Below, in pieces: positions 1,999-55,685 of a stretch of DNA of 64,000 nt. Each line of letters opens with the position of its first letter. The stretch's first letter is position 1. The notes beneath the pieces were generated by a model. The model worked only from the letters and a program-made list of their open reading frames with translations, was not told the DNA's origin and ran no database searches. Made by a program: the position numbers and the translations under genes. The stretch comes from Verrucomicrobiota bacterium (GTDB taxonomy: Bacteria > Verrucomicrobiota > Verrucomicrobiia > Limisphaerales > CANJXF01), in NCBI GenBank assembly GCA_038214755.1, contig JBBQRQ010000010.1:1-64000 (forward strand), given 5' to 3'.

Positions 1999-4900
1999 TC
2001 ACGATGCGCCGTCTTCCGAGAAGAGGTACTCCAAATCCATTGCCGATAAGTTGCGCGCGAAACCTTCCTCGCCCAGAACGTCGGCGATAGTTTGCGCCTT
2101 GCGTTGCTGCAGGTCCCAGATTTTTTCTTCAACCGTTCCGGGCGCAATCAGACGATAGGCATTGACCGTGCGGGTTTGGCCGATGCGATGGGAACGATCA
2201 ATCGCCTGAGCTTCGACCGCCGGGTTCCACCAGGGATCATAGAGCACAACGTAGCTTGCAGTGGTGAGATTGAGTCCAGTGCCGGCAGCGCGCAGGCTTA
2301 GCAAAAACAACGAACCTTTCGGCTCCTCTTGAAAGGCATTGACGACGGCCTGCCGATCCTTCGTTTCGCCGGTGAGGATGTGAGTGGAGATGCCGCGCTG
2401 GCCACATTCTTTTTCCAACAACTTCAACATCTGCACGAACTGGCTGAACACCAAAACTTTTTGGTTGGCGGCCAGCAAAGGTTCCAACAATTCAAATAAA
2501 GTTTCGGTTTTGCCGGAGGGCGAATCGTTGCCGACCAGTTGAGGGTGACAACAAATCTGGCGCAACCGCGTCAAAGCGGCGAGCACGTGAATGGTGCTTC
2601 TGCCCAAACCTTTTTCGGCGACGGTTTGCATGACTTGCTCGCGGCTGCGGCGAAGTTCGGCCAGATAAAGTTTTCTTTGCGCCTCGCCGAGATCGCAGTC
2701 GCGCCGCTCTTCGATGCGGTCGGGCAAATCGCGGGCCACTTGTTTTTTTAATCGGCGCAGCAGGAGCGGGCGCAGCTTGGCGGAGAGCCGTCGGCGCGCG
2801 ATACGCGCTTCCAACTCGGACCCTTCTTCCAACGGGGAACTTGGAACGCGAAACTCGGAACTGTCTGCACTCGGAATTTTTGACTCCGCGTTCCGCGTTC
2901 CGCGTTCGGCGTTGTTCGGCTTGGGTTCGTACTTCTCCGTGAACTGTTGTTGCGTTCCAAGAAAGTTTGGCTGCACAAAATCGACAATGCTCCATAGATC
3001 GAGCAAACGATTTTCCAACGGCGTTCCCGTGAGAGCCAGGCGCTGTTCGGCGACGAGTTGCTTGACCGATTGCGTGACCTGCGCATCGGGATTTTTTATG
3101 AATTGCGCCTCGTCCAACACTGCGGCGCGAAAGGAAAATTTTTGCAACGCTTCCAGATCTCGACGGAGCAGAGCGTAATTGGTCACGATCAAATCGTGTT
3201 GCGGAATCTGTTGGCGCAAGTTGTGTCGCGCGGCGCCACTTTCCAAAACAAGGACTTTTAGGTGCGGCGTAAACTTTTCGCTTTCGCGCCGCCAGTTGTG
3301 CAGAACCGACGCCGGACAAATTACCAAGGCAGGTTTCGGATTGTTGGGATGTTGCGATTGCAGCCAGGAAATCCAGGCCAACGTTTGCAATGTTTTTCCC
3401 AAGCCCATGTCGTCGGCGAGAATTCCACCGAGCTTGTGCCGAGTGAGATGGCAAAGAAAATCAAACCCCTCTTTTTGGTAGGGACGTAATTCTGCGGTGA
3501 TATTTTTTGGCAATTCAGTCGGGATAATTCCGGTGAAATCGGCCAGACTTTTTCGCAACGCCTGGGCCTGCGGCGAATCGACAAAACGTTGCAAACCGGC
3601 TTCGTCCAGGTGCGCGGCTTGTTCCAGACCGAGCCGTTGCGGAATCGGAATCAAACCATCCACTCCGAGATCGGCAAAAGCCTCGTGAGCAGATTGCACC
3701 GCGGACGGATCGAGTTCCATCCAACCCGCGTTGGGCAGATGCACGAAGCGGCCGGTGGCAGTTTGCAATCGTTGGAGATCGGCGGGTGTCAGTTTCAAAC
3801 CTTCAATTTCCCACTCGGTCGAGACGGAGAACCAATCGATCCCGCTGCCTTTGACCACCAGATGCGGACGAAGCTGGCGCGGCGCTAAAAACAAGCGATG
3901 AAAAGCGGGGTTGCCCAGATAGTCCGCTTCACTCGGACGATCCGCCCAGGCCTGGGCGAGTGCGTTGAGAAAATTTTCATTCGCGTCGCCCAGCCAAACT
4001 CCCGGCTCCGGGGTGAACCAATCTAAACGCCTCAGCCATTGGCTCGCTGGTTCCAGGCGATCATCTTCCAAAATCTCCGGGCGATCACTCGTGCGAACCA
4101 CCGGCTCATCGCTTTGCCATTCGTGGCCCGTCCAGTGCCACAGGGTTTGGTCTCTTCCGCTACGCGCTTGCAGTCGCAGGCGAACCACTTCGTCGCTCAA
4201 CTCAAAAGTGAACTGCGGCTTGGCGGGATGTGCGACACAAAGTTGTTCCCAATCGACTCCCGGCGTCAGTTGACTTTTGCGCAGGTTGGTGACGAGACGA
4301 TGACTGAGTTTGCTGACCGGCAACGATTTTTTTTTCGCCCACGAATCAAGCAATTCGGTGGGAGGCCCATTGCGCAGCAGATAGAAAGTGTCGCCGATGA
4401 GCACGAGCGACGGACGGCCTGCAAAAAATTTGACCGAGTTGAATGGATGCACCTCGCCATTGGGCAAAAGCAAATTGTGAGTGAAGGAAAGTTCTTCGCC
4501 GATTTTTTCGAGGTTGGGTTTCAGTTCGGCGAGGTGGCCATGAAATTTGAGGACAGTTTGGTCGAGTTGCAGGCGCGCGTTGTCGCCCCAGCGGACGAGC
4601 CATTGCAATAACTCCAGGCCCGTCAAAGTAATGCTGTCCCACAACCCTTCCGGGTCGGCATGAGTTTCCGCCAGCCACTGAATAAATTCCCAATCGAGCG
4701 GAGAAAAAAGTTCCTGCTCATGGGCGGAACGGGTGGTGAGTTCGATAATTTCCGAAAGTGTTTTTGGTTTTTCGCCGGTGCGTGGACGGAACAAATGAAA
4801 TTTCACGACGAGCGCTTGCAGGGCGGAATCTCCTTCAAAAGGCAATGTCTCACAGACAATGCGCAGAGCGGCGCGGGGCGAATCCAAGTGGCCCGGCGCC

Positions 4901-5358
4901 GGAGGAAAAAGCCAGTGCTCAAGTTGTTTGACTAATTCCTTGTCCTTTTCCGCCTGCTCGATTTCCGCGAAGCGATCCAGATTGGCGTGAGGAGTAAGTT
5001 CGGTCGGCAGAGGCCGATTGGCGCGCAGAAATAAAATGGCCGTTTCTTCGAGTCGTTTTTTTCCTTTGACGGCCAGCAAACGCGGCCACCAGTCCTGGCC
5101 GGAAAAATCTTTGCGGGAGAGGGAAAGTTTCTCGAAATAATCTTCGAGCAAAAGCCAGGCGCGTTGCGAGTCGCTGCAATCAGAAAACATTTGGAGCAGC
5201 TCGGTGCGCTCGGCCACGGCGGCTTTGGAATCGGAAAGTTCGCGACGCAAATCCGCCAGCGCCCCGTAAGTCTTGGTCAGAACGGTGTGATGCGCGTCGT
5301 ATTTGGTGGTCGTTCCCGATTTGGTCGTGGAACCCGTTTTACGTGTCGTCTTCGCCAT
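1999..5358 (-). CDS. SNF2-family (SWI2/SNF2) ATP-dependent helicase
   Basis: LRPYQKEG, ILADDMGLGKTLQ, DEAQFIKN, LTGTPLEN, KVLVFSQF, GTGLNLT, QAIDRSHRIGQ motifs. Confidence 0.95.
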   Translation of the reverse strand: MAKTTRKTGSTTKSGTTTKYDAHHTVLTKTYGALADLRRELSDSKAAVAERTELLQMFSDCSDSQRAWLLLEDYFEKLSLSRKDFSGQDWWPRLLAVKGKKRLEETAILFLRANRPLPTELTPHANLDRFAEIEQAEKDKELVKQLEHWLFPPAPGHLDSPRAALRIVCETLPFEGDSALQALVVKFHLFRPRTGEKPKTLSEIIELTTRSAHEQELFSPLDWEFIQWLAETHADPEGLWDSITLTGLELLQWLVRWGDNARLQLDQTVLKFHGHLAELKPNLEKIGEELSFTHNLLLPNGEVHPFNSVKFFAGRPSLVLIGDTFYLLRNGPPTELLDSWAKKKSLPVSKLSHRLVTNLRKSQLTPGVDWEQLCVAHPAKPQFTFELSDEVVRLRLQARSGRDQTLWHWTGHEWQSDEPVVRTSDRPEILEDDRLEPASQWLRRLDWFTPEPGVWLGDANENFLNALAQAWADRPSEADYLGNPAFHRLFLAPRQLRPHLVVKGSGIDWFSVSTEWEIEGLKLTPADLQRLQTATGRFVHLPNAGWMELDPSAVQSAHEAFADLGVDGLIPIPQRLGLEQAAHLDEAGLQRFVDSPQAQALRKSLADFTGIIPTELPKNITAELRPYQKEGFDFLCHLTRHKLGGILADDMGLGKTLQTLAWISWLQSQHPNNPKPALVICPASVLHNWRRESEKFTPHLKVLVLESGAARHNLRQQIPQHDLIVTNYALLRRDLEALQKFSFRAAVLDEAQFIKNPDAQVTQSVKQLVAEQRLALTGTPLENRLLDLWSIVDFVQPNFLGTQQQFTEKYEPKPNNAERGTRNAESKIPSADSSEFRVPSSPLEEGSELEARIARRRLSAKLRPLLLRRLKKQVARDLPDRIEERRDCDLGEAQRKLYLAELRRSREQVMQTVAEKGLGRSTIHVLAALTRLRQICCHPQLVGNDSPSGKTETLFELLEPLLAANQKVLVFSQFVQMLKLLEKECGQRGISTHILTGETKDRQAVVNAFQEEPKGSLFLLSLRAAGTGLNLTTASYVVLYDPWWNPAVEAQAIDRSHRIGQTRTVNAYRLIAPGTVEEKIWDLQQRKAQTIADVLGEEGFARNLSAMDLEYLFSEDGAS
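2836..2911. repeat. Heptamer tandem-repeat element (GGAACNN x4 ... TTCCGCG x4, inverted arms), in frame inside SNF2
   Basis: ggaactt-ggaacgc-gaaactc-ggaactg ... ctccgcg-ttccgcg-ttccgcg-ttcggcg; encodes NAERGTRNAESKIPSADSSEFRVPSSP. Confidence 0.8.
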
Positions 5359-5518
5359 GTGTTACCCATTTCCAGCCGTGCATTCGCTCACAAAAGGGGG
5401 GTTGGGGTCAATTAGAAAGCAGGAAAAGTAAATTGTGCCAAGTGAAACTTGTTCACAAAAGGTTCGAGCCGAAAATAATCGGACAAGAGTTTGCCGCACT
5501 CTCATACGCCGCGCCGTT

Positions 5519-5647
5519 CTTTGGACTGCGGCAGCATGACGCCGCTTTTCCTGCACGCCACGCTGAGAGATGAAGCTCTCGAACCGACGGAGCCGCTCTC
5601 TTTTTCCTTCGTGCAGCCAAAGCGGGGACATGTCCCCGCACTCCAAA
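5519..5647. repeat. REP-like palindromic element, family B (degenerate copy)
   Basis: tttggactgcggcagcatgacgccgcttt ... aaagcggggacatgtccccgcactccaaa inverted arms; related to 55765-55858 and the copies inside 15110-15618. Confidence 0.7.
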
Positions 5648-5698
5648 TAGGCCGCGAGGTTCCCCCCAGGTTTAATCCATTTTGTAGCGGCGAATTAA

Positions 5699-6718
5699 TT
5701 AACTGGCAGCAGCGCGTTCCAAGCGATCCCGGATGGCGTCCCACTCTCGCGTCTTCGGCAAATCTTCTATCACGATCAATTCGGCCCCCGCCTCGTCGCA
5801 TTGATGAAGCTCGGCATACCACGCCCGGCCAAAAGCATCCGCGTCGTGAGGAATCACGGCGACCCGGCCGAATTTTTCGCTCGCCGGAATTTTGGTGTGC
5901 GCAATGATGTGAACCTTCGTCAGGGGCGATTTACGATTTACGATTTGCGCTTCCAAATCCAACTCATCGCGCCAGGATAAAATCACCAGCTTCGCTTTGG
6001 GCGAGTAATGTTTTTTTAATAAACCGGGGCTTCGCAAAACCTCTTCGCTGTCCCCAAAACCCAGAGTCAATTCGCCAACGACCGCGAGCAATGATTCCGC
6101 GTGAATCATGCCCGGTCGCAACAGCCGGGGCGGTTGCGCGGTCAAATCGATCACCGTCGATTCGATGCCCACCTGCGATTGTCCGCCATCGATGATCAAA
6201 GAAATTTTGTCGCCTAAACTTTTTTTTACGTGGCCGGCGTTCGTCGGAGAAATTTGGCCCGAATGATTCGCGCTCGGCGCCGCCAGCGGAAAATCACAGG
6301 CGCGAATCACCGCTTGAATGAATGGATGACTCGGCCAGCGCACACCCACCGTTTTTCCACCGGCCGTCACTGCATCAGGAATTTTTTCCGAACGTGGCAA
6401 AATCAAAGTCAGCGGCCCCGGCCAAAATGCGTTTGCTAATTTCTGCGCGAGGTCCGGCCAATATTCGACGCAGCGCTGCGCCATGTCCAAACTGGCGACA
6501 TGGACAATAATGGGGTTTTGCGCGGGACGATCTTTTGCCTGAAAAATTTTCGCGACGGCCTTTTCGTCAAACGCATTGGCGGCGAGGCCGTAAACCGTTT
6601 CCGTCGGCAGCGCAACGAGTTCACCCTCGCGCAATATTTTGGCCGCGTGTAGCACGGCTGCATCAAAAAGCGCAGCGTTGTGGGTCGGCAAAATTTCGAC
6701 TTTAAACTTTTTTTCCAT
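5699..6718 (-). CDS. sua5: L-threonylcarbamoyladenylate synthase (Sua5: YrdC domain plus SUA5 C-terminal domain)
   Basis: VALPTETVYGLAA, KDRPAQNPIIVH, FWPGPLT, AAPSAN, GIESTV, SPGLLKKHYSP. Start placed at MEKK because the upstream ATG lies inside a REP. Confidence 0.93.
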   Translation of the reverse strand: MEKKFKVEILPTHNAALFDAAVLHAAKILREGELVALPTETVYGLAANAFDEKAVAKIFQAKDRPAQNPIIVHVASLDMAQRCVEYWPDLAQKLANAFWPGPLTLILPRSEKIPDAVTAGGKTVGVRWPSHPFIQAVIRACDFPLAAPSANHSGQISPTNAGHVKKSLGDKISLIIDGGQSQVGIESTVIDLTAQPPRLLRPGMIHAESLLAVVGELTLGFGDSEEVLRSPGLLKKHYSPKAKLVILSWRDELDLEAQIVNRKSPLTKVHIIAHTKIPASEKFGRVAVIPHDADAFGRAWYAELHQCDEAGAELIVIEDLPKTREWDAIRDRLERAAAS

Positions 6719-6723
6719 TTGTG

Positions 6724-6920
6724 CGGGTAGCATCTGCCTCCGGCGAGTGCGAAGACATTTCTTCGTTCGATGTTCGATGTTGGATGTTCGATGTTGGATG
6801 TTCGATGTTGGATGTTCGATGTTCGATGTTCAGTGTTCAATGTTGGTTTTAATTTTCAAACATCGAACGTCGAACGTCGAATAAGGTTTTTTCGCACCCG
6901 CCGGAGGCAGATGCTACCCG
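6724..6920. repeat. Composite element: family-E inverted arms enclosing TTCGATG/TTGGATG heptamer array
   Basis: cgggtagcatctgcctccggcgagtgcgaa ... about 11 heptamers and a short inverted heptamer run ... ttcgcacccgccggaggcagatgctacccg. Confidence 0.88.
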
Positions 6921-7002
6921 GCGGATTTGAACATCGCGACGTTACTGGATTTTCCATTTCATTTCGTTTTGGACTTTCCGATTTTGAATTTAAAGTTTTT
7001 TC

Positions 7003-8112
<1,110 letters not shown>

Positions 8113-8140
8113 AGCGGTTGCCGAAATAAATTTCCGGATA

Positions 8141-8212
8141 GGAACGCCGATTTCCTAGTCGGCAGGAGGTCGAACGATCGAGCGCAAAGAGCCGAACCGG
8201 AGTTCGGCGTTC
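8141..8212. repeat. REP-like palindrome, family C (intergenic copy)
   Basis: ggaacgccgatttcctagtcggc ... gccgaaccggagttcggcgttcc; its reverse complement closely matches the arms of the insert in recQ at 22085-22161. Confidence 0.8.
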
Positions 8213-8347
8213 CGTTCGCAAAATGCGTTGTCGAAAATTATTTTGGCAACCAATCCAGGAAAATAATTCCAGCGAAAGACTTCAAACCGTCAAAGCCGTT
8301 TCGTTCTTGCCATCAATCTTCCCGTTAGCGGAATGTATCCAACCTTT

Positions 8348-9361: not shown

Positions 9362-9389
9362 TCCATTCGTAATCGACCGCCGAGTTGCC

Positions 9390-11527: not shown

Positions 11528-11532
11528 AATGA

Positions 11533-12552: not shown

Positions 12553-12560
12553 AGCCGTCT

Positions 12561-15109: not shown

Positions 15110-15618
15110 TAGCGCAGGTTTTTAACCTGCCGTATCGCGGGTTTGCAACCGGCTGGACATCGCCGGGGTGGTGATTCCAGGTGGCGTTCACTACCGGTGC
15201 TGTTAAAAGCGGCGGAGGGCTGCCGCACCCCAAGACGCTCGCGCGAATTTCGATGGCGCAGGAATGGCGCGGAGCGTCTTGGAGTGCGCCAGTCCTCTGG
15301 CGCTCTTGTTCGGACCGCCAAATCGTAGCGCAGGTTTTTAACCTGCCGTATCGCGGGTTTGCAACCGGCTGGACATCGCCGAGGTTGTGATTCCAGGTGG
15401 CGTTCACTACCGGTGCTGTTAAAAGCGGCGGAGGGCCGCCGCACTCCAAGACGCTCGCGCGAATTTCGATGGCGCAGGAATGGCGCGGAGCGTCTTGGAG
15501 TGCGCCAGTCCTCTGGCGCTCTTGTTCGGACCGCCAATTTAAATCACACCCGAAATCGCCCATCCTCGCAGAGTCGATTGTAAATCGGCGATACAGCAGC
15601 TTGCAAAGCTGCGCTACG
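15110..15618. repeat. 216-bp tandem duplication of a nested REP-A/REP-B unit, closed by a REP-A right arm
   Basis: Near-identical units start at 15110 and 15326 (tagcgcaggtttttaacctgccgtatcgcggg...cggaccgccaa); right arm ...cgatacagcagcttgcaaagctgcgctac ends at 15618. Confidence 0.92.
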
Positions 15619-20804: not shown

Positions 20805-20884
20805 GGGACGGCCACTTGAAATCACACCCTAATCCGGGTCTGCGCTTGAATCCTGGTGCGTGATTGCTTTTAGTTCTTTACGCG

Positions 20885-23152
20885 ATGCCGCCTGAAAACA
20901 GTCAACTCTTTCCTCTGCTCAAACAATATTTTGGCTTCACCTCATTTCGTCCGTTGCAGGAGGAAATCATTCGTGACTCTCTCGCGGGCAAAGATGTTTT
21001 CGCTTTGTTGCCGACGGGCGGTGGAAAATCACTTTGCTTCCAACTTCCGGCTCTGGCGCGGGAGGGTTTGACCGTGGTCGTCTCTCCGCTCATCGCGTTG
21101 ATGAAAGATCAGGTGGATGCGATGCGGGCCAGCGGTGTTCCGGCGACGTTTTTAAATTCTTCCCTCGATCCGCATGAAGCGCGCTCGCGTTTGCGGGGTT
21201 TGCACAATGGCGAATTTCGTTTGCTCTACGTCGCGCCGGAGCGGCTGATGATTTCCGGTTTTCTCGAAGACTTGAAACAATGGAAAATAAATCTCATCGC
21301 GGTTGACGAAGCGCATTGCATCAGCGAATGGGGGCATGATTTTCGCCCGGAATATCGGCAGCTCGCCGAGCTGCGCGATCATTTTCCAAACGTTCCGTTG
21401 ATGGCGCTCACTGCGACGGCGACCGAGCGCGTGCGCGACGACATCATCAAACATTTGCGGCTGCGGGGAGCGAACGGCGAGACCAACTCCCGCCCCACCG
21501 CGATGTCTCGCCTCGCCATTTACGTCGCGAGTTTTAATCGGCCAAATTTGATTTATCGCGTGCTGGCGAAAAACAAACCGTACGAACAAACACTGGCCTT
21601 CGTCCGCGAACGTCCACAGGAAAGCGGAATCGTTTATTGTCAAAGCCGGAAAACCGCGGAGATGGTGGCCAACCGTTTGACCGCCGATGGGGTGAAAGCC
21701 AAACCGTATCACGCCGGCCTCGAACAAAAAGATCGCGCCACCAATCAGGAATTATTTTTGCGCGATGAAGTTCGCGTGATCTGCGCCACGATTGCTTTTG
21801 GAATGGGCATCAACAAATCAAACGTGCGTTTTGTGATTCACTACGATCTGCCGAAAAATATCGAAGGTTATTATCAGGAAACGGGGCGCGCCGGACGCGA
21901 CGGTTTGCCGAGCGAATGTGTTTTGCTTTTCAGCGCAGGCGACGTGGTGAAGCAAATGCAATTCATCGACGAGAAAAGTGCGCAGGAACAAAAAATTGCG
22001 CGGGAACAATTGCAGCAGATGGTGCATTACGCCGAGTGCGCGGTTTGTCGGCGGGCGGAATTGCTGGCGTATTTTGGGGAGACGTTCGGAACGCCGAACT
22101 CCCGTTCGGCAGCGGGCGAGAACTTGCGCCAACATGCCGATCAGGAGATCGGCGCTCCGAATTGCGGCGGGTGCGATAATTGTCTTTCCCCTCGCGCCAC
22201 TTTTGACGGAACACTCGCCGCGCAAAAATTTCTTTCGTGCGTTTATCGCATTCGCGAAAAAAGTGGATTTGGCGTGGGCCTGAATCACGTCATCGAAGTT
22301 TTGACCGGAGCGGAAACGGAAAAGATTCGTCGCTGGCATCACGAACAACTTTCCACCTACGACATTGGAAAAGAACACACTCGCCAGGAGTGGGGCGCGA
22401 TTGGCCGCGAGTTGGTGCGGCTGGGCTATCTTCGGCAGACGACGGAGAAATTCAGTGTGCTCGAATTGACCGAGGAAGGCCGCGCGGTTTTGTCCAAGCG
22501 CAAATCAGTGACGCTCACAAAGCCTGTCACCGCGCCGGAAACAAAAACACAACGCGCCGGAGAAATTTCCTGCGATGAAATTTTGTTTGAACGTTTGCGG
22601 CAGGTGCGCAAAACGCTGGCCGACGAGCGCGCCGTGCCGTCCTACATTATTTTTTCCGATGTTTCGTTGCGGCAAATGGCGCGGACTTATCCGGCGAACG
22701 AACAGGAGTTCGCGCGCATCAGCGGCGTGGGCGAAAAAAAATTGCAGGAGTTCGGCGAAACATTTCTCTCGGAAATCGCGGCGCATTTGCAAAGCAGCCC
22801 GCGCCAGATTTTTGCCGAGGAAATTTTTGTCGCGCCGATTGCCACCAAACCGTATCTCAACACCACGGCGCGCGAGACGTTGAAATATTTCCAGGCTGGC
22901 GAAACTGTTGAAGCGATTGCGCGTCGGCGCGGTTTTGCGGTCAGCACGATTTACGGCCATCTGGCGACGGCGATTGAGGCGGGTGAAAAAATTGAGTTGC
23001 ACCAATTTCTGAACGCCGAAGAACAAAAGGAGATCGCGGCGGCATTCTCCAAATTTGGTTTTGGGAATATCACGGGCGTGAAGGAATCGTTGGGAGATAA
23101 ATTTGATTACGGGTTGTTGCGAATTTTTCGCGCGGCTAAACAACGCGGGTAG
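20885..23152 (+). CDS. recQ: ATP-dependent DNA helicase RecQ (helicase, RQC, HRDC, C-terminal HTH)
   Basis: LPTGGGKSLCFQLP, VDEAHCISEWGHDFRPEY, QETGRAGRDG, CRR...CGGCDNC, HRDC VPSYIIFSD. Confidence 0.96.
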   Translation: MPPENSQLFPLLKQYFGFTSFRPLQEEIIRDSLAGKDVFALLPTGGGKSLCFQLPALAREGLTVVVSPLIALMKDQVDAMRASGVPATFLNSSLDPHEARSRLRGLHNGEFRLLYVAPERLMISGFLEDLKQWKINLIAVDEAHCISEWGHDFRPEYRQLAELRDHFPNVPLMALTATATERVRDDIIKHLRLRGANGETNSRPTAMSRLAIYVASFNRPNLIYRVLAKNKPYEQTLAFVRERPQESGIVYCQSRKTAEMVANRLTADGVKAKPYHAGLEQKDRATNQELFLRDEVRVICATIAFGMGINKSNVRFVIHYDLPKNIEGYYQETGRAGRDGLPSECVLLFSAGDVVKQMQFIDEKSAQEQKIAREQLQQMVHYAECAVCRRAELLAYFGETFGTPNSRSAAGENLRQHADQEIGAPNCGGCDNCLSPRATFDGTLAAQKFLSCVYRIREKSGFGVGLNHVIEVLTGAETEKIRRWHHEQLSTYDIGKEHTRQEWGAIGRELVRLGYLRQTTEKFSVLELTEEGRAVLSKRKSVTLTKPVTAPETKTQRAGEISCDEILFERLRQVRKTLADERAVPSYIIFSDVSLRQMARTYPANEQEFARISGVGEKKLQEFGETFLSEIAAHLQSSPRQIFAEEIFVAPIATKPYLNTTARETLKYFQAGETVEAIARRRGFAVSTIYGHLATAIEAGEKIELHQFLNAEEQKEIAAAFSKFGFGNITGVKESLGDKFDYGLLRIFRAAKQRG
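22085..22161. repeat. Family-C palindrome in frame inside recQ Zn-binding region
   Basis: ttcggaacgccgaactcccgttcggca ... tgccgatcaggagatcggcgctccgaa; encodes FGTPNSRSAAGENLRQHADQEIGAPN. Confidence 0.85.
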
Positions 23153-23662
23153 CATCTGCCTCCGGCGGGTGCGAAAATGTCACATATTTGAGAGGCCGCG
23201 AAAAACTCCACCCTCGTCAACAGCATTTGCAAATTCTTCAAAACCCATATTTCCGATGGAAAGATTATTTTCTACCGAAGGAACTTGGGCCGGAAGAGAG
23301 CGAAATCGTCGTCCCCTTACTTCCAACAAATCAACGATGAGCAACGGATGGTCGGATTGTGAAATCGATACATCATCGGCCACCACCATGAAGCTGTGAG
23401 GATAATCTTCTGAAACCATTTCTATCAACTGTTCTACTGTCACTCCATTGTTCTCGTGGTCATCGAGAAACTCCATGTTGAATATGAATGGATCTTCAGG
23501 CTGTTGCACTGTCTCAACAATTTGATCCCATGAACTTTGATCTGAGAAATCCGGATAATTAGAGCGCTTTCTGTAACTGGAATATTCTTCATAAATTATC
23601 TGTGGTTGGGGGTATAAACATTATAACCAATTCACCGCACCCGCCGGAGGCAGGTGCTACCC
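23146..23662. mobile_element. Family-E inverted arms bracketing an AT-rich cargo gene
   Basis: Left arm cgggtagcatctgcctccggcgggtgcg (from 23146); right arm cgcacccgccggaggcaggtgctaccc (23636-23662). Confidence 0.7.
23180..23592 (-). pseudogene. DUF6924-like protein, frameshifted near the N-terminus
   Basis: ATG at 23592 gives MKNIPVTESALIIR, then another frame continues DFSDQSSWDQIVETV...VENNLSIGNMGFEEFANAVDEGGVFRG. The expected RTDFSD motif is broken by a small deletion near 23552. Confidence 0.65.
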
Positions 23663-23677
23663 ACGCCTTAGGTTTTA

Positions 23678-30507: not shown

Positions 30508-31062
30508 TTAAATTCTTTTCTTAATTCGATAGGGAGGCGCTTCCTCGCGCATGTGAAAACCAATTTCGGGCTTAGGCGTCGCGGGCGGGGCGAGCAATTG
30601 GCGGATCGCTGCGAATAAATTTCCAAGCGCCTGGTCGTGTCCGTCGAGACGCTGTTCCAGTTCGGCAAATTTTTGGGCGAGTTCTTTATTGGTCGCCAAC
30701 ATTTCGCGCAAGTTGACGAACGCTCGAACGACTCGAACGCTGGCTTCGATTGCGACGGAACTGTTGAGAACACTCGCCAACATAATGACTCCATGCTCGG
30801 TGAAAACCCACGGCAACTTCCGATGCCCTCCATGCGAACTTGAGGTCGCAATTTGCGACCTCAAGTTTGCAAACTCCTGGCGGGTAAGTTGAAACGCAAA
30901 GTCTTCTGGGAACCGTCGCAGATTCCTTTTCAATGCCTGGTTAAGGACAGTCGTCGCAACACCGTAAATTTTGGCCAACTCAGTATCCAACATCACCTTT
31001 TGTCCGCGAACCAAAAGAATCAGTTCTTCGAATCTTTCCACTCGTTGGATTTTGTTAGCCAT
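30508..31062 (-). CDS. ORF6N-domain DNA-binding protein inserted in the atp operon
   Basis: VRGQKVMLDTELAKIYGV...LNQALKRN..RFPEDFAFQLT...LRSQIATSS..GG.RKLPWVFTEHGVIMLASVLNS; C-terminal coiled coil and IGFH. Confidence 0.9.
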   Translation of the reverse strand: MANKIQRVERFEELILLVRGQKVMLDTELAKIYGVATTVLNQALKRNLRRFPEDFAFQLTRQEFANLRSQIATSSSHGGHRKLPWVFTEHGVIMLASVLNSSVAIEASVRVVRAFVNLREMLATNKELAQKFAELEQRLDGHDQALGNLFAAIRQLLAPPATPKPEIGFHMREEAPPYRIKKRI

Positions 31063-43103: not shown

Positions 43104-43472
<369 letters not shown>

Positions 43473-45769: not shown

Positions 45770-47769
<2,000 letters not shown>

Positions 47770-47825
47770 TCAATGAGAGTATTCCGAGGACGGAAAGTTT
47801 TACCAGATGAACGCGTGCGCAAAAG

Positions 47826-47911
47826 TGGTGGTAGGTGATGGATTCGAACCATCGAAGACGTAAGTCAGCAGATTTACAGTCTGCCCCCGTTGGCCACTTG
47901 GGTAACCTACC
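47826..47911 (-). tRNA. tRNA-Tyr (GTA)
   Basis: GGTAGGT acceptor stem, GCAGA-CTGTAAA-TCTGC anticodon arm, long variable arm, GGTTCGAATCC T loop, encoded CCA; 86 nt. Confidence 0.96.
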
Positions 47912-47989
47912 TTGCAAGGAGCGCGGATTAAGCCAAACCCAATCGCTCCACTCAAGTTCAAACTTCGCCGCGCGCCTGCCGTTTTCAAA

Positions 47990-48064
47990 TTCGATGTTCA
48001 GCGTTCGATGTTGGATGTTCGACGTTCTCCAACTTTGAACTTTGAACTTCGAACTTTAAACTTT
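47990..48064. repeat. Two adjacent heptamer arrays (TTCGATG type, AACTTTG type) upstream of ffh
   Basis: ttcgatg-ttcagcg-ttcgatg-ttggatg-ttcgacg ... aactttg-aactttg-aacttcg-aacttta. Confidence 0.82.
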
Positions 48065-48075
48065 AATTTCGATTC

Positions 48076-49419: not shown

Positions 49420-49462
49420 GCGACTTCTTGCCAGCGAATATCCGTTGACCTAAAATTCGCGC

Positions 49463-49681
49463 ATGAAAGAGATCATTTTCGAGGTTTCCGAGGATGAAGT
49501 GGATGGAGGTTACGTGGCGGTAGCCTTAGGTCACGCCATAGCGACTCAAGGTGAGACTTTGCCTGAACTTCGCCACATGGTTCGTGACGCGGTGAATTGC
49601 CATTTCGGAGACGGAGAAGTTGGCGAAGCTCCTTCTATTATCCGGCTTCATTTCGTGCGTGATGAAGTGCTTACTCCATGA
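49463..49681 (+). CDS. HicB-like antitoxin (short form)
   Basis: DGGYVAVA...TQGETLPEL...VRDAVNCHF; overlaps hicA by ATGA. Confidence 0.78.
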   Translation: MKEIIFEVSEDEVDGGYVAVALGHAIATQGETLPELRHMVRDAVNCHFGDGEVGEAPSIIRLHFVRDEVLTP

Positions 49682-49923
49682 AAATCCCACGGGATGTTCA
49701 CGCTTCCGAGCTTATCAAGTCGTTGCGTGTTTTAGGTTATCAATTTGTCCGTCAAGACGGCTCCCACATTCGTCTGACCACACAATTAAATGGGAAACAT
49801 CACGTTACTATCCCAAACCATAAAACGCTTAAAACAGGCACGCTTACGAGAGGTGTTTTGAAACCGGTGGCGGCTCATCACAAACTGACCTTGGAAGAAC
49901 TTCTCGAAAAGCTGGATCTGTAA
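49678..49923 (+). CDS. HicA-family toxin
   Basis: ELIKSL..LGYQFVRQDGSHIRL...HVTIPNH..LKTGTL. Confidence 0.9.
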   Translation: MKIPRDVHASELIKSLRVLGYQFVRQDGSHIRLTTQLNGKHHVTIPNHKTLKTGTLTRGVLKPVAAHHKLTLEELLEKLDL

Positions 49924-49937
49924 TCTGAACTGGAAAA

Positions 49938-50354
49938 TTATTTCTTAATCCGCGATGGCTTGAACGGATAAAATTCTACTTTGCAAAAGCGTGAGTCACG
50001 AATCGCGGCATCACAAGTTATCAACGTCAGATGGAACGCCCGCGCTGTCGCGGCAATAACGCGGTCAAAGGGATCGCCCGGAAAATTAGACGGTAGTTCA
50101 TTTGTCAAAGCCGCGATCTCAGGAGTCATTTCGATCAACTCCATGTCCGAAGCGAGGCCGAGCTTGAAAAATTCAGCCAACGTTCCGTCCAATTTCAAAC
50201 GTCCTCGGCGATGATGGATCGCGCATTCCAAGAGGCTGACAGGGCATAACCCTTTTTTCTCGTCGCTATCCAGAAGTTGTTGAATTCGTGAAGGAATAAC
50301 CTCCGGCAACAAAACGTTGTTTGCCCACGGCGAAGTATCCAGCAGATAGCGCAC
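49938..50354 (-). CDS. PIN-domain VapC-like toxin
   Basis: YLLDTS...SLLE...GDPFDRVIAATA...LITCD. Confidence 0.9.
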   Translation of the reverse strand: MRYLLDTSPWANNVLLPEVIPSRIQQLLDSDEKKGLCPVSLLECAIHHRRGRLKLDGTLAEFFKLGLASDMELIEMTPEIAALTNELPSNFPGDPFDRVIAATARAFHLTLITCDAAIRDSRFCKVEFYPFKPSRIKK

Positions 50355-50573
50355 TTACATTATCCCTTTCCATTCTGATTTTTCAACGGGCGCCGGCGAC
50401 AGAGCGATTCCTTTCGACATCTTTTTCCCAGCGCCGACGTGTCGCGAAGATTTTTCCATTTTGAAAATGTATCTCCGGCCTTCCCGATCCACTAATCGAA
50501 CCGCTGTGCCGGTCGCGGCTTGGCGCTTGAAATGGGAGAACCGTTTGATGAAATCGCGAGTGATAACGCTCAT
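50355..50573 (-). CDS. Putative antitoxin upstream of the PIN toxin
   Basis: Small basic ORF (MSVITRDFIKRFSHFKRQA...) directly abutting vapC, with a promoter just upstream. Confidence 0.65.
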   Translation of the reverse strand: MSVITRDFIKRFSHFKRQAATGTAVRLVDREGRRYIFKMEKSSRHVGAGKKMSKGIALSPAPVEKSEWKGIM

Positions 50574-50608
50574 GTCAGGCATTATGTATGACAAAAAATT
50601 TCTGTCAA
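50574..50608 (-). promoter_or_regulatory. Sigma70-like promoter with overlapping inverted repeats (likely TA autoregulatory operator)
   Basis: TTGACA-N16-CATAAT, 7 nt before ATG; TGACA-N9-TGTCA and TGTCA-N11-TGACA inverted repeats overlap it. Confidence 0.6.
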
Positions 50609-50694
50609 CGAAAGCTAAAGCAGAATCGTTCGCGCGCCCGGAATGCGGACGCGCTCCTTTCGCGAATGTCGATGCTTGGTCCTCTACCCGCACT

Positions 50695-51948
50695 TCATGG
50701 AATCGGAATCGGGCCGGGCAAGACGCGGTAAAATTTCGTGGACAGCGATGCGGGCTGGGAGTCATACCAAATCACCGTCGGCATGTTTAGCGTGAGATTC
50801 GTCACGCCTATCCAACTGTTGGTGTTGGATAAGTCCAGGGTTGTTTGGATGCCGTAGGTTTGGCCCACGACGCCGTCAATCGTCACGCCCGGATAGAGCG
50901 CGATGGAAACACCCGCAGGATTCACAGTGAGAATCGCAGGGTTACTCGTAATGCTACCAGATGAATTAACCACCACTACTGCATAACGTCCGGCGTTTGT
51001 GAATTGGAGATTGGTAAGAACAAGAGTCGTATTCGTCGCGCCGAAAATTTGGTTCGTGCCAAAGAACCATTGATAACTCAGTGGCGCGGTTCCTGTCGCA
51101 AGCACGCCAAATGATGCGCTCTTTCCCCAATAACCAACCTGACTTTGAGGTTGGTTAATGATTCGTGGACTGGCACACATTCCGGCATTCCCAGCCGCAT
51201 AAATTGCTGAAATCTCGCTTGAAGTAAGCGCGCGGTTAAAGATAGAGACCTCGTCAATTTTTCCAGCAAAAAAACCATCTAAAACAACAACATTGCCATC
51301 ATCAAGATCAAGACGTGCTCCAATTTGCACAGACGAATCATCTTGAGCATAAGAGCCGGAGTATTGGTTTGGATCTTGAATACCGTTAATGAAAAGTTTG
51401 GCTATGGATCCATCATAGGTTCCTGTGACAAAGTACCATTGGTTGGTACTCAGGACGGTGGCTGACTCCACATAGGGCCAACTCGATCCGTTTGGAATAT
51501 GCAAATGAAGACGACCATTCGATTCCACGCGAAATTCAAAATTCATGTAGTAATGACCGGGCACATTATGAATTTTCGTAATAATTGCTGAGAATCCATT
51601 AGTTGTGTTGTATGACGTCAAATAAATCCAAGCGCTGAGGGTGAATTGAGTCGGATTGATACCACTGCCAACACTGACATATCCATTTGTTCCATTCAGG
51701 TTAAACGACGTGCCAACTTCTCCCGCTGCGTACGAAACGCCGCCAGCCAACGTCCCATTGTTTGTTCCGGCATTATCAAGAGCGTTCCCATCAGCCAACC
51801 ACCAATGCCACAAACCTGACGGTGGTGGTAAACAGTCCGCTGTCGCGTTTTGCGGGCCAGTGACAAGACTGGCGAGGCTCAAGATAGTTGCCAGGACGCC
51901 CGACCAAATGCCGATTCCATTCTTTTTTATGATTGAATTGATTTTCAT
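50695..51948 (-). CDS. Secreted LamG-domain plus immunoglobulin-domain protein
   Basis: Signal peptide, CLPPPSGLWHWW.ADGNA, WYFVTGTYDG..LFING, GKIDEVSIFNRAL, Ig QPQSQ..LSYQW..AGRY, C-terminal FYRV tail. Confidence 0.88.
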   Translation of the reverse strand: MKINSIIKKNGIGIWSGVLATILSLASLVTGPQNATADCLPPPSGLWHWWLADGNALDNAGTNNGTLAGGVSYAAGEVGTSFNLNGTNGYVSVGSGINPTQFTLSAWIYLTSYNTTNGFSAIITKIHNVPGHYYMNFEFRVESNGRLHLHIPNGSSWPYVESATVLSTNQWYFVTGTYDGSIAKLFINGIQDPNQYSGSYAQDDSSVQIGARLDLDDGNVVVLDGFFAGKIDEVSIFNRALTSSEISAIYAAGNAGMCASPRIINQPQSQVGYWGKSASFGVLATGTAPLSYQWFFGTNQIFGATNTTLVLTNLQFTNAGRYAVVVVNSSGSITSNPAILTVNPAGVSIALYPGVTIDGVVGQTYGIQTTLDLSNTNSWIGVTNLTLNMPTVIWYDSQPASLSTKFYRVLPGPIPIP

Positions 51949-52003
51949 GATTTTACTTCGCTGTTGTTTTGTTGCTCCATGCGAAACTTGCGGATTGCGG
52001 AAT

Positions 52004-52246
52004 AAAAAAGGGCGCGAACTTGTCGCACCCTCATCGGAGGCACCGCGAAGCGCCTGGAGAAAGAATGCTCCAAGCCGCGCCGGGTGGCACGTGCTTGGGC
52101 AGGGTCTTTCTCCGTAAAATTCGCGGTTTTCCGATGAGACCGTAGCCGAGCTACGCAAAATGGTTTTCTGTTTTTGGTTTACATAGGTTCGTTTGCCCGC
52201 ACTTCGCGGACGTTTTGACCTTCGTGAAATGTGTCGGTCGTGTCAA
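52004..52246 (-). promoter_or_regulatory. Structured 5' leader: candidate promoter, four-stem hairpin and intrinsic terminator
   Basis: TTGACA-N17-GAAGGT (52246-52218); nested stems over 52030-52138; terminator-like agggtgcga/tcgcgccct plus U6 (52031-52004). Confidence 0.6.
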
Positions 52247-52368
52247 GCAGGCAGGCAGGAATTTTGATTCGGCCTTTAGAAAAGGGGGCGCTTTCCATCA
52301 AAAGGCGAAGATTGGCGTATTCGCGGGACGAAAGGAATACCGGGGATGCGTCGCCGGTAAAATTTGAT

Positions 52369-52851
52369 TCACCCGTTTTGTTCCCTAAGAATCGCTTCGA
52401 GTTCGGCCAGCGCATCCAAATCCTTTGGGCGACCGGCGGCGCGCTTCAGTCTGATGAGTGTCGGTAAATCCACACACTTGAATTTTACGTGGAAAGCTTC
52501 CAAATCAAAACTGTGTGCGATCAACTCACGGTAAGTGCCGCCGCCAATTACCTCGCCCAATAAATCCAAATCGCCCAGCTCAGTCGTCAGCGTGAAATTC
52601 AATCCGTTACGAATCGTTCGTTCGTCAAATGTGAACGGCAATCCAGGCGGCGCGCCGCGCAAGTAAGGTTTGAAGGGTTGCAGTGCTTGCACGAGACGTT
52701 TGTGATTCACTGAGTTGCGCGCGTAAATCACGTCCACGTCGTAGGTCACGCGCGCGGAGCCGTGAATGATTCCCGCCACGCCACCAATCAGAATAAATTC
52801 GACTCCTCCTTGGACGAGAACCGGCAATAGCTTATCAAACTCAGCGCTCAT
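52369..52851 (-). CDS. Nucleotidyltransferase-fold protein
   Basis: EFILIGGVA..HGSARVTYDVD...GDLDLL...LIRLKRAAGRPKDLD. Confidence 0.8.
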   Translation of the reverse strand: MSAEFDKLLPVLVQGGVEFILIGGVAGIIHGSARVTYDVDVIYARNSVNHKRLVQALQPFKPYLRGAPPGLPFTFDERTIRNGLNFTLTTELGDLDLLGEVIGGGTYRELIAHSFDLEAFHVKFKCVDLPTLIRLKRAAGRPKDLDALAELEAILREQNG

Positions 52852-53021
52852 TGCTTGGCGCGGAATTTTTCTCCGGCACTTTTCAATGTCGCGGTGAAGC
52901 GAGAGAAGCGAACAAATTTTTCCAAACGTTGTCCCGGCGTGAGCTTCAAGTTTTCCCGCAGCAATGTGCGGTCAACATCGCGCAAATAAAATTCCACCAC
53001 GGGATCGGTCTTTGGTTTCAT
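52848..53021 (-). CDS. Small 57-aa protein translationally coupled to the nucleotidyltransferase (not in ORF track)
   Basis: MKPKTDPVVEFYLRDVDRTLLRENLKLTPGQRLEKFVRFSRFTATLKSAGEKFRAKQ*; TGA overlaps the next ATG. Confidence 0.7.
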   Translation of the reverse strand: MKPKTDPVVEFYLRDVDRTLLRENLKLTPGQRLEKFVRFSRFTATLKSAGEKFRAKQ

Positions 53022-53051
53022 CAAGGGCGATAAACTAGCAGGTTGATTTTT

Positions 53052-55685
53052 TCAGGCAAACCTCTCCGTGTCGAAGAAATTTCGGATTTCCTCCGCAGGA
53101 TTTTGCGCGATTAATTCCGCCGGAGTTTCATCGAACCAATCTTTCGGCAAATAATCAGCATACGGCGATTGCAAAAATCTTTGGCAAATCAGCGCGATGA
53201 CGCCGCGATCGGTTTCACTGCGAATCAGTCGTCCCGCCGCTTGAATGACGCGAGTCATGCCGGGTTGCAAATAGGCGTAGCCGAAACCGGCTTGCTCCTG
53301 CTCATCGAAATAGCGGCGCAACAATTCGCGCTCGAAGGAAACCTGGGGTAGCGCAGGCGACACAACAAAAACCCCGGACAGAAGTTCGCCGGGATAATCC
53401 ACGCCCTCGGCATACATCCCGCCGAGAACGGCAAAGAGAAGAACTTTTTCCGATTTCGCAGCGGACAACGCGCGGAAAATCTCCTGGCGTTCCACATCCG
53501 GAACGTTGGGCCGCTGCCGCAAAAGTCGCGCGGAAGTTGGCGGCATCAAATCGGCGACCTTGCTCAAAAAAGTATAGCTCGGAAATAAAGCCAGAACATT
53601 TCCGGGAACAGCGTCAGCCATTTCAGCGATCAGTTTGGCGATGCGCGGAAAGTTTTTTTCGCGCGCGGCAAAAGTCGTTCGCACTTGCGGGACAATTAAA
53701 ATTTTTCGGTTCTCGCGTGGAAACGGCGGCGGCAGAGAAATCGATTTGGTTTTCTCGCGCGCCAGACCCAAAACCCGTTGCGTCGTTTCAAAAGGTTGCA
53801 GCGTGGCGGAGAGAAAGATGGTGGACGCGGCGGACTTGAAAATCGGCGCGAGCGGTCGCGCGGGATCGAGGCAGACCAGCGCGAGTCGAATTCCTTTGTC
53901 CGTTCGCTCAACGACAGAGGTGAAACCGGGACCGAATAAATTTAGCGTCGCGAGAAATCGGTGTAGAGCAAAGTGGCAATCGAGGATAGAATCCTCCGCT
54001 GCGGCGATTTTGTTTTCGCGTTTCCAGGAAAGATACCGGATGAATCGCGGCTCCCACTCCTTCCAGATTTGGCGAAGTTCCTTGATTGGCGGCGTTGTTT
54101 CGGCGATGGCGGTTTCTCCCGACAATATTTCTGCCGTCGTGTGGAGCAGCGCGATGACGGACGCGAAGGTGTCGCGGATTTGATTGAACAAATAATCGGT
54201 TTGGTCAGCAGGCTGTTCCAAAGTGAAAAGCCCTTGTCCCAAATCTTTGTCCACAAAACGCTCGCCCTCACCCCGGCCCTCTCCCCCGAGGAGAGGGAGA
54301 ACGGTTCGCAGTTCGCGGGTGAATTTGGGTGGCGTTGGTTGTTGGTGCGGCGTTGATCGAAGGTTCCGCTGTGCGCGAATACTCCCTCTCCTGGGGGAGA
54401 GGGCTGGGGTGAGGGCGGACAATCCGGTGAGGGCGGGCAATCCCTCCCACGCGCTTTGAAAAATCTCCTCGCGCAGTTCCGGCGAAAAAATTTGTCGCGC
54501 GCGGTCCGCCAGATTGTGCGCTTCGTCCACAACTAGAATTTTATTTTCCAAATCTTCGAGTTGCTTCATCGAAACGCCCGGATCGAAAATGTAATTGTAA
54601 TCCGCCACAACGGCATCGGCGCGTGCAGCCAATTCCAGTTGCACTTCAAAGGGGCAAACTTTTTCGCGTTTGGCTTCTGCAAAAACGGCGCTCGGATCGT
54701 GGTGCGTTTGCGTTTCGCGCAGGCGTTCGAGCAGTCCGGATTTCTCCATTTTCTCAGGATAATTTTTTGCGTATGGACAAAAATCTTCGTGGCAAATCAC
54801 CCGGTCATTGGCGCACATTTTTTCTTTCGAGCGCATTTGCAACGTGCGGAATCCACCTTCCCGATTCATGGCGACGAGCGCGTCTGACGCCATTTTCTGC
54901 TGCAATGTTTTTGCGGTGAGAAAGAAAAGTTGTTTCCCGCTCGACAGCGCTTCCACCAGGGCTGGATGAATTCCGGCGGCAGTTTTTCCAGAACCGGTCG
55001 GCGCTTCCGCCAGCAAATTTTCGCGCACCCAGACCGCTTGTTGGACGGCGTCGATCAATTTCACCTGACCGGGCCGAGGCGAGTCGTGCGGAAACGGGAG
55101 ATGCGCGGCAATCGTCGCCTTTTTTTTGCGAATGATTTCTTCGGATTTCCAAACGGCCACGAGACGTCGAAGTCGCGATTCGATTTCTTTTTGTTGCGCT
55201 GCTTCGTCGTAGGAAATTTCAAACGGAAATTCTTTTCCCGTCGCGAGATCAACGTAAACGAGAGAACCGAAGATGGGCGAGTGACCGAGTTGCCGCCAGA
55301 GATGGCAATAAATTAAAAGCTGTCGGCAGTGGCGCTCGAAACTTTGTCCGAAAGGCCGGACGTGCGCGGAGGGCGAATAGGAGGACTTAAATTCTTCGAT
55401 GAGCCATGAGCCGTCGTCGCGTTGAAAACATCCGTCGAGCCGGCCCGTGACGATGGCCGTCCAATCGCCGAGGGAAAATTTTGTTTCGAGAGAAATCTCA
55501 CGGGAATATTTGACGTCGGCCTGGCAGCGTTTTTCCAAAATCCCCGTGTGCAATTCCGCGCCGAGTCCAAGGCGGTTCCAGGATTCGCCGCGCTCAAATC
55601 CGATGCGATGAAAGCCTTCCTCTTCCGTCAGTTCGCGGACGGATACGGTCAGAATTTTTGTCGCTTCATCAAATCTCAACGGCAT
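53052..55685 (-). CDS. DinG/XPD-family Fe-S helicase with N-terminal PD-(D/E)XK nuclease-like domain
   Basis: GRLDG..IEEFKS..QLLIY; RPGQ, EAPTGSGKT, Cys cluster, ADYNY, VDEAHN, SATL, EGVD, QAAGRLIRSETDRG. Confidence 0.9.
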   Translation of the reverse strand: MPLRFDEATKILTVSVRELTEEEGFHRIGFERGESWNRLGLGAELHTGILEKRCQADVKYSREISLETKFSLGDWTAIVTGRLDGCFQRDDGSWLIEEFKSSYSPSAHVRPFGQSFERHCRQLLIYCHLWRQLGHSPIFGSLVYVDLATGKEFPFEISYDEAAQQKEIESRLRRLVAVWKSEEIIRKKKATIAAHLPFPHDSPRPGQVKLIDAVQQAVWVRENLLAEAPTGSGKTAAGIHPALVEALSSGKQLFFLTAKTLQQKMASDALVAMNREGGFRTLQMRSKEKMCANDRVICHEDFCPYAKNYPEKMEKSGLLERLRETQTHHDPSAVFAEAKREKVCPFEVQLELAARADAVVADYNYIFDPGVSMKQLEDLENKILVVDEAHNLADRARQIFSPELREEIFQSAWEGLPALTGLSALTPALSPRRGSIRAQRNLRSTPHQQPTPPKFTRELRTVLPLLGGEGRGEGERFVDKDLGQGLFTLEQPADQTDYLFNQIRDTFASVIALLHTTAEILSGETAIAETTPPIKELRQIWKEWEPRFIRYLSWKRENKIAAAEDSILDCHFALHRFLATLNLFGPGFTSVVERTDKGIRLALVCLDPARPLAPIFKSAASTIFLSATLQPFETTQRVLGLAREKTKSISLPPPFPRENRKILIVPQVRTTFAAREKNFPRIAKLIAEMADAVPGNVLALFPSYTFLSKVADLMPPTSARLLRQRPNVPDVERQEIFRALSAAKSEKVLLFAVLGGMYAEGVDYPGELLSGVFVVSPALPQVSFERELLRRYFDEQEQAGFGYAYLQPGMTRVIQAAGRLIRSETDRGVIALICQRFLQSPYADYLPKDWFDETPAELIAQNPAEEIRNFFDTERFA
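54263..54417. repeat. REP-like palindrome, family I, in frame inside the DinG helicase
   Basis: cgccctcaccccggccctctcccccgaggagagggag ... ctccctctcctgggggagagggctggggtgagggcg; encodes ALTPALSPRRGS...LPLLGGEGRGEG. Confidence 0.88.

Follow-up and report, generated by a model that had tools for sequence, protein, structure and literature searches.

Mostly intergenic repeats lie in frame inside core enzymes of a Verrucomicrobiota genome, in loops that carry other repeats in relatives

Repeats described inside bacterial genes

We analyzed a window of 64,000 nucleotides (the whole stretch under study) from a Verrucomicrobiota bacterium, in which the genes of five enzymes, SNF2, Sua5, TrpD, RecQ, and DinG, contain short repeat-like DNA read in frame. 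This window covers the opening 64 kb of contig C10 (JBBQRQ010000010.1) of assembly GCA_038214755.1, a genome of 5.1 Mb in 175 contigs that is 97% complete and is called G000 below. The original prediction, made from the letters of the window, knew of no such report in this lineage. It was mistaken in this, as the survey of repetitive extragenic palindromic (REP) sequences by Di Nocera et al. 2013 (PMC3733652) covers Opitutus terrae of the same phylum; here and below, papers are cited as far as their available text goes. O. terrae is the genome richest in intragenic GTAG REPs in that survey, with 70 in-frame rows listed and hosts including HrpA, a DEAD/DEAH helicase, both UvrA genes, RecD, and DnaE2, and the paper discusses neutral loops and a bias to DNA-repair genes and speculates on mutator effects. 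Shared with G000 are in-frame copies from several REP families within known proteins, a preference for genes of DNA repair and helicases, insert sizes of ~7-50 aa from single arms or dimers, a second hit in some genes, and REP feet that supply TAG stops. In-frame heptamer arrays are suggested for Opitutus as well: one insert (row Oter_3011) ends in a peptide like the products of CTCTCAA-type heptamers in G000. The present case differs in its order, in having more families, in ~177 affected genes, and in the involvement of heptamer arrays and DUF559-linked repeats, and the elements at RecQ site b and in DinG have no GTAG foot. For different REPs at about the same site, the paper gives one case, Xanthomonas recB, whereas the re-occupation of a loop by at least 10 families and full and empty cassette states are known from the genomes studied here and not from its available text.

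REP doublets forming hairpins (REPINs) and REPtrons provide a second comparison (PMC3116915, Bertels and Rainey 2011; PMC8266576, Corneloup et al. 2021). Inverted doublets, conserved arms, a variable spacer, and a modal length are shared with them, and genes of REP-associated tyrosine transposases (RAYTs) in G000 are flanked by cognate repeats, as in REPtrons. RAYT-like single-strand transposition has been proposed for REPINs (PMC3116915, PMC8266576), and REPINs inserting into or beside REPINs have been described (PMC3116915). As far as available, the REPIN and RAYT analyses (PMC3116915, PMC8266576, PMC6006769) treat extragenic copies, whereas ours lie in genes; Quentin et al. 2018 (PMC6006769) excluded proteins that were unusually long, taking them for fusions or misannotations. 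The RecQ site-b and DinG elements have the high copy number and mostly extragenic location of REPs and REPINs (110 of 122 and 136 of 151 other loci in G000 are intergenic) and appear REPIN-like. We do not file them as canonical REPINs because their arms have no GTAG foot and no cognate RAYT was found for either family among the 18 Y1-transposase frames of the 97% complete assembly.

Rickettsia palindromic elements (RPEs), of ~150 bp, reportedly encode a conserved peptide, and nearly half of them lie in open reading frames (PMC10969869, PMC3184786). They resemble the present elements in being palindromic DNA in frame inside intact housekeeping genes. A conserved peptide and a large genic share were not found in G000, where nonsynonymous and synonymous differences from the family consensus are equal (pN equals pS), several frames are used, and 196 of 1,680 clusters are internal to genes. 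The RecQ site-b and DinG elements are not RPEs.

Cyanobacterial short tandemly repeated repetitive (STRR) sequences are heptamer repeat arrays of bacteria. Tandem arrays of 7 bases, some of them intragenic, are described in Geobacter metallireducens (PMC2700814) and in Beggiatoaceae (TAACTGA) and Microcystis (PMC4679880). The arrays of G000 share the 7-base tandem units, the presence of some in genes, and an orientation limited by stop codons. Unlike those described in the available text, they comprise many different units in one genome, occur as inverted pairs, lie at the flanks of four-helix-bundle genes, and take one another's place in a single protein loop. In the literature searched, which left most subscription journals outside and included papers available in part, family turnover in one protein loop was undescribed beyond the recB remark of Di Nocera et al., and so were four-helix-bundle mobilizers. 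The basic habit is already published, and the window alone is a further example of it. What is apparently new, in that we did not find it in print, is the re-occupation of the RecQ zinc loop by at least 10 hairpin families, an occupant that tracks the resident family of the genome, and a two-state site in PriA.

Repeat-like segments in five conserved enzymes

The nearest named relatives of the window recQ are Verrucomicrobiota, with labels including Limisphaerales, Pedosphaera, and subdivision 3. Host identities, and the helicase and control gene sets used below, were set by Pfam, which agreed with the five hosts of the original prediction. All six segments were found where they had been placed, in frame and stop-free (Table 1). 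The five hosts are under purifying selection (dN/dS 0.04-0.21 against genus orthologues), which speaks against decay. The unpublished genome G009 supplied one TrpD row and one short DinG loop, and the conclusions are independent of both.

Table 1. Positions of the host genes, in-frame segments, and related features (window coordinates unless a locus is named)
Feature	Position	Strand	Pfam; dN/dS against genus orthologues; remarks
SNF2-family helicase gene (host), 1119 aa	1999..5358	-	PF00176, PF00271; 0.04-0.08 (7 orthologues)
SNF2 in-frame heptamer hairpin: (AACGCGG)n arm and inverted AACTCGG/AACGCGG-type arm	2830..2914	-	inverted pair, fold-back
Sua5/TsaC gene (host); start possibly a few codons further in	5699..6733	-	PF01300, PF03481; 0.10-0.14
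Sua5 segment: three AAATCGT-type heptamer units (21 nt = 7 codons), overwriting the loop, length unchanged	5927..5947	-	
Intergenic composite sua5/trpD: GTAG-footed REP arms around an AACATCG heptamer hairpin	6724..6920		family inside TrpD
TrpD gene (host), 369 aa	7003..8112	+	PF00591, PF02885; 0.13-0.21
TrpD in-frame (AACATCG)4.6 array and short stem-loop, in the loop directly before the conserved LDE motif	7691..7748	+	
Intergenic REP-like doublet	8140..8217		kin to RecQ site-b element
RecQ gene (host)	20864..23152	+	Pfam; 0.06-0.11
RecQ site a: +14-aa insertion	21464..21514	+	
RecQ site b: 71-nt inverted REP-like doublet (GGAA/GGAG feet) in zinc-binding loop	22088..22158	+	
DinG/XPD-like helicase gene (host), 877 aa	53052..55685	-	PF13307, PF06733; 0.11-0.13 (one DinG locus unparsed)
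DinG 155-nt inverted-repeat element (CCCTCACCCC family), in frame within an older genus-wide loop	54263..54417	-	
Free-standing RAYT-like gene	59376..59945	+	between own REP doublets 59197-59329 and 60071-60222
RAYT domain and flanking REPs in frame inside PriA	L145:1091-4087 (G000 C88)		
RAYT domain and flanking REPs in frame inside second DinG-like helicase	L146:1081-3969 (G000 C64)		
RAYT domain and flanking REPs in frame inside 1,439-aa fusion protein	L147:910-5229 (G000 C33)		

Alignment to orthologues showed that five segments, those of SNF2, TrpD, RecQ sites a and b, and DinG, are true in-frame insertions, while the segment in Sua5 brings no net gain. Membership in families common elsewhere in G000 likewise held for five of the six, with no match for RecQ site a, and at least five families were found where at least four unrelated repeats had been proposed. 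With family size taken as the other 300-nt loci of G000 reaching a blastn score of at least 18, the SNF2 family has 37 (11 intergenic), Sua5 13 (9 intergenic), and TrpD 93 (88 intergenic), besides the counts of RecQ site b and DinG given above. Intergenic copies within the window, which had also been predicted, are present for the TrpD family (6765-6881 and 47990-48027) and for the RecQ site-b family (8140-8217).

The RecQ site-b element is made of two inverted palindromic arms forming one hairpin (fold-back z -5.18). Two orthologue surveys showed that it replaces about 8 nt and adds a net 21 aa, and the insert sits between the cysteine pairs of a domain which we take to bind zinc. As in REPs and REPINs, the arms are conserved and the spacer is variable with a modal length: core to core, 84 of 99 pairs between genes measure 68-71 nt, and the in-gene pairs 63-71. 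The 14-aa insertion at site a is absent from 27 of 28 orthologues with data and from 76 of 77 parsed in a second survey. It was rejected as a member of a current G000 family, as no other locus there matched it at a blastn score of at least 16 and it is not a hairpin (fold-back z -0.46). Site a is probably a decayed REP arm, since its counterpart in the relative G002 resembles a known arm, matching by eye 20 of 24 bases of one present 23 times within 4 mismatches in G000. The TAG stop codon of recQ is itself provided by the GTAG foot of a REP arm (23144-23177; partner arm 23635-23663).

The DinG loop measures 87 aa; four genus members have 41-45 aa and four outgroup loci, including one from G009, 11-12, and the element adds about 45 aa over genus members without it. 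Its inverted palindromic arms form one hairpin (fold-back z -8.05), and an 18-nt tandem duplication of one end extends to 54443. The element is present in G000, G003, and G007, which hold 53, 13, and 25 genomic matches, and absent from G001, G002, G004, and G006, which hold 0, 0, 0, and 1.

The other three segments contain heptamers. The SNF2 hairpin (fold-back z -3.34) gives a net 30 aa above the empty state, and the anchor-to-anchor length is 84 aa; of 26 parsed orthologues, 21 have 54-58 aa and the other 5 have 70-73 (27 of the 30 loci surveyed were parsed). The TrpD loop (fold-back z -3.70) is 27 aa long compared with 10-36 in orthologues, 17 aa more than the shortest, and the solved homologue 9ucw has no insert; in the TrpD model the predicted local distance difference test (pLDDT) score is 90.2 overall and below 50 solely at residues 234-245, the insert. 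Sua5 as a net insertion was rejected, as its 19-aa loop has the identical length in 19 of 29 orthologues, an outcome named beforehand as speaking against insertion. The segment is not a hairpin (fold-back z -0.05), and from the equal loop length it follows that three heptamer units overwrote seven codons. Period-7 DNA of differing units also occurs in these loops in 3 of 29 parsed SNF2 orthologues (2 of 1,614 control windows), 9 of 28 TrpD orthologues, one being G009 (1 of 327), and 7 of 24 parsed Sua5 orthologues (4 of 251).

Genome-wide extent and re-occupied loops

All genome-wide counts rest on the 3,899 genes of G000 called with a home-made codon model. Dispersed intergenic 16-mers gave a catalogue of 87 repeat clusters, and a library of 606 intergenic segments was searched against genes; a match at least 50 codons away from both gene ends counted as an internal insert, with codon shuffling as the control. 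The results showed internal family matches in 160 genes compared with 2 after shuffling, forming 204 clusters, of which 166 have coding-like flanks on both sides. Period-7 arrays number 67 internally, 206 between genes, and 0 in shuffled coding sequence, and are shared with the abundant intergenic arrays. Taken together, ~177 of the 3,899 genes carry inserts at 232 sites, which bears out the genome-wide occurrence that had been proposed; old inserts are undercounted because the library misses RecQ site a. Family copies are 22-fold denser between genes (1,432 intergenic clusters and 196 internal), and five hosts per 64 kb are a mild excess over the genome mean of 2.2 (Poisson P=0.07). Families in frame in G000 other than those of RecQ site b and DinG include some with GTAG or GTGG feet, and in one hairpin family the internal matches exceed the intergenic ones (30 and 21). 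Ser, Arg, and Pro are frequent in the inserted peptides and aromatic residues scarce; the inserts are 7-52 codons long, too short for any splicing domain (intron or intein) that we know of.

Helicases are enriched in inserts: 10 of 24 carry one compared with 4.0 expected from length (~2.5-fold, P=0.002), and 8 of 22 (P=0.013) when the window's own genes are removed. Inserts occur in 3 of 6 class I tRNA synthetases (0.8 expected, P=0.02), 2 of 39 histidine-kinase-type ATPases (4.7 expected), and 1 of 7 translational GTPases (0.7 expected). The helicase bias is real, modest, and not limited to helicases. At least two inserts are present in 38 genes compared with 13 expected from length, with up to 6 in one gene.

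In the RecQ zinc loop, 73 of 108 distinct orthologues have the empty state of 6 aa and 33 have at least 14 aa. The lengthened loops fall into 12 clusters with fold-back z of -3.9 or lower, and we count at least 10 hairpin families because two cluster pairs look related by eye. Five genomes were tested for whether the occupant belongs to the family abundant in that genome, and in four it does. That of G000 follows a resident family with 288 matches, and those of G003, G006, and G007 follow a resident family other than that of G000, with 49, 74, and 71 matches. Occupants differ between close relatives, and the same loops carry different repeat families in different relatives. The 47-nt zinc-loop elements of G003 (L033) and G007 (L032) agree at 45 of 47 positions in reverse orientation and 40 of 47 forward, which points to a flip or to two insertions.

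Origin of the inserts

The families are abundant and mostly intergenic, the hosts are conserved, the inserted peptides drift neutrally, and filtering by frame and stop codons is at work. Stop-bearing reading frames are almost unused in genes, and the AAAGTTC array occurs there 7 times in the open orientation and 0 times in the stop-bearing one. We consider it likely that the in-frame inserts are ordinary copies of the short non-coding repeats of G000, REP/REPIN-like doublets and 7-base arrays, which survived a filter, and that the loops are re-occupied over time. Copies would pass the filter when the frame is preserved, no stop is introduced, and the loop is tolerant. The doublets may spread through single-strand HUH/Y1 transposases (RAYTs) or through comparable small genes that form cassettes with matching repeats, with DUF559 as a candidate mover of the DinG family and four-helix-bundle and GxxExxY genes as candidates for the 7- and 8-base arrays. 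Heptamer arrays would be seeded from small cassettes and then grow, shrink, and overwrite codons in 21-base steps by slippage, and a slack loop would act as a landing pad re-occupied repeatedly, usually by the family active in that genome and sometimes by a whole cassette. The predicted route for new peptide loops holds in this passive sense, but selection on the peptides was not found and occupants differ between close relatives. An idea that empty stop-free frames prove dimer insertion was dropped, as spans are not fixed modulo 3 and stops in the wider consensus explain one family.

The candidate movers are suggested by neighborhood in G000. Many of its 18 Y1-transposase frames have REPs of their own families at their flanks; of 11 four-helix-bundle frames, 9 are flanked by 7- or 8-base arrays, often inverted and in one case of the TrpD family; one DUF559 gene lies among DinG-family repeats; and one of three GxxExxY genes lies inside octamer arrays. 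At the DUF559 locus (L148:900-2900, contig C14) the gene stands among tandem DinG-family repeats and is followed by short related genes, which are flanked by heptamers of the AACGCGG, CGATTTA, and AACATTG types, the units of SNF2, Sua5, and TrpD.

Several observations weigh against this account. No mobilizer was found beside the RecQ site-b, SNF2, or Sua5 families among the 18 Y1, 11 four-helix-bundle, 1 DUF559, and 3 GxxExxY frames, and we know of no mobilizer activity of four-helix-bundle, DUF559, or GxxExxY proteins, whose link to the repeats is neighborhood alone. The SNF2 heptamer family is more genic than intergenic (26 and 11 loci), and the right arm of family f1 has one stop-free frame, reading the rare codon CTA, which goes unused in genes (0 of 28). 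The comparison with orthologues that establishes indel status covered 7 hosts among the 177 insert-bearing genes, and the RecQ model (mean pLDDT 66.6, with low confidence well past the inserts) is too poor to place them. The matches of G003, G006, and G007 are not independent and may represent one event because their recQ genes form one clade (98%), and the gene trees are poorly resolved within the genus, so that gains and inheritance are not countable. Turnover also leaves unexplained a perfect copy of the window's RecQ site-b right arm in the recQ of G002 (L043), an assembly (76% complete) without any other copy of that family; the arm may be a relic or an import by recombination.

Most in-frame doublets might instead be scars of repeat-gene-repeat cassettes whose gene was lost through recombination between the flanking repeats. 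Three RAYT cassettes do lie in frame inside long host reading frames of G000 (Table 1), the 1,439-aa host being, in our reading, a large sugar-kinase-like fusion, a label from inspection with no search result behind it. Of 28 fully anchored PriA loci, 6 have a RAYT in the loop, and these involve two RAYT types and differing REP families; in the YoaA/DinG loop a RAYT is present at 2 of 30 loci. PriA of G008 (L154) contains doublet-RAYT-doublet, and PriA of G007 (L156) the right-hand doublet and spacer alone, joined at the left junction, which falls within the repeated left arm. The comparison shows the full cassette and the lone doublet to be two interconvertible states of one site, but the pair gives no direction, and a doublet already in place could have received the cassette. 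For the sites of the window itself no cassette was found in 149 orthologous loci of the five hosts (134 parsed) scanned for inserts of at least 45 aa, nor in 80 further RecQ loci; no cassette Pfam was seen among 17 long RecQs (8 read) or 1 long DinG, a weak result as the protein searches scored 8,000 candidates. In-gene doublets also have the same spans as intergenic ones, as direct insertion predicts. The cassette-scar explanation is unlikely for most sites, and it may hold for part of them.

A further step down in probability is that polymerase slippage builds heptamer arrays de novo in loops free of constraint, without the help of a mobile element. Slippage of 7-nt units has been proposed (summarized in the available text of PMC4679880), and it would fit the differing units found in one loop across orthologues, as in TrpD, and the overwriting of Sua5 at constant length. 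However, the in-gene units of G000 are the few that dominate its intergenic space, the SNF2 array is an inverted pair, and arrays lie, often inverted, at the flanks of 9 of 11 four-helix-bundle frames. This explanation could cover heptamers only and leaves the palindromic families unexplained.

That the inserts were kept since the new peptides usefully alter helicases and other enzymes we regard as improbable. The enrichment in helicases and class I tRNA synthetases and not in histidine-kinase-type ATPases, the excess of multi-insert genes, and the persistence of old inserts across species (SNF2 and RecQ site a) are in its favor, as is the fact that arms are more conserved than host synonymous sites, although this conservation acts at the DNA level because synonymous sites are included. 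In-gene arms compared with the intergenic family consensus gave pS 0.094 and pN 0.100 (P=0.50), in a comparison that counts overlapping families twice, and thus no selection on the encoded peptides was found there. Several frames of each family are in use, and RecQ orthologues have either the empty loop, as most do, or unrelated peptides.

Selection of the hairpins as DNA or RNA structures in the gene, for pausing, mRNA stability, or protein binding, seems slightly less probable again. Between G000 and G002 the RecQ site-b arms are identical at 44 of 46 positions and the spacer at 10 of 25, with a host pS of 0.45, and between G000 and G003 the DinG codons are identical at 22 of 27 positions inside the loop compared with 350 of 609 outside. 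The same pattern would result if the elements had inserted recently, had undergone gene conversion by abundant copies, or had been exchanged through recombination among related genomes; the stem of the left arm in G002 is broken by its two changes, and in-gene copies are more diverged from the consensus than intergenic ones (2.18 and 1.79 mismatches on average). Decaying host genes or repeat assembly errors are barely credible as the source even in a 175-contig assembly, as all five hosts have low dN/dS, each was the sole match in its genome search, and homologous inserts are present in independent assemblies.

Other features of the window lie outside the five hosts. The REPs around the free-standing RAYT-like gene belong to the largest repeat cluster of the genome and are not among the five in-frame families, and the gene may be truncated because its Y1 match runs past the TAA stop. 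At 15110-15537 a composite of two REP families is itself duplicated in tandem (216 bp, 98% identical). An ORF6N-domain gene (30508-31062) is inserted in the ATP synthase operon, with the gene of the alpha subunit on one side and that of the gamma subunit on the other. Around a DUF5122 repeat gene, copies of a ~105-nt segment (43116-43222 and 45782-45889, 83-86% identical) and a 96-nt repeat pair form a bracket that is possibly a partial gene duplication.

A bolder extension of the preferred account, tentative and rather doubtful at present, is that tolerant loops of core enzymes, above all of helicases, are long-lived landing pads for a guild of cassettes (RAYT, DUF559, four-helix-bundle, and GxxExxY), cycling between empty, lone hairpin or heptamer, and full-cassette states, with their DNA actively rewritten on site to the resident family. 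If this is true, four-helix-bundle proteins would be the missing mobilizers of bacterial heptamer arrays. The RecQ zinc loop, having taken at least 10 unrelated peptides, belongs to a map of natural insertion-tolerant sites, and such loops are a test case for how REPs and heptamer arrays spread because a single site offers filled, empty, flipped, and full-cassette states for in-register comparison. Insertions specific to lineages of Planctomycetes, Verrucomicrobia, and Chlamydiae (PVC) have sometimes been read as positively selected indels (PMC3000692, in whose main text, as available, "repeat" and "palindrom" are absent). The present loops call for caution here, as an insertion that PVC proteins of one lineage carry can be repeat DNA of neutral character.

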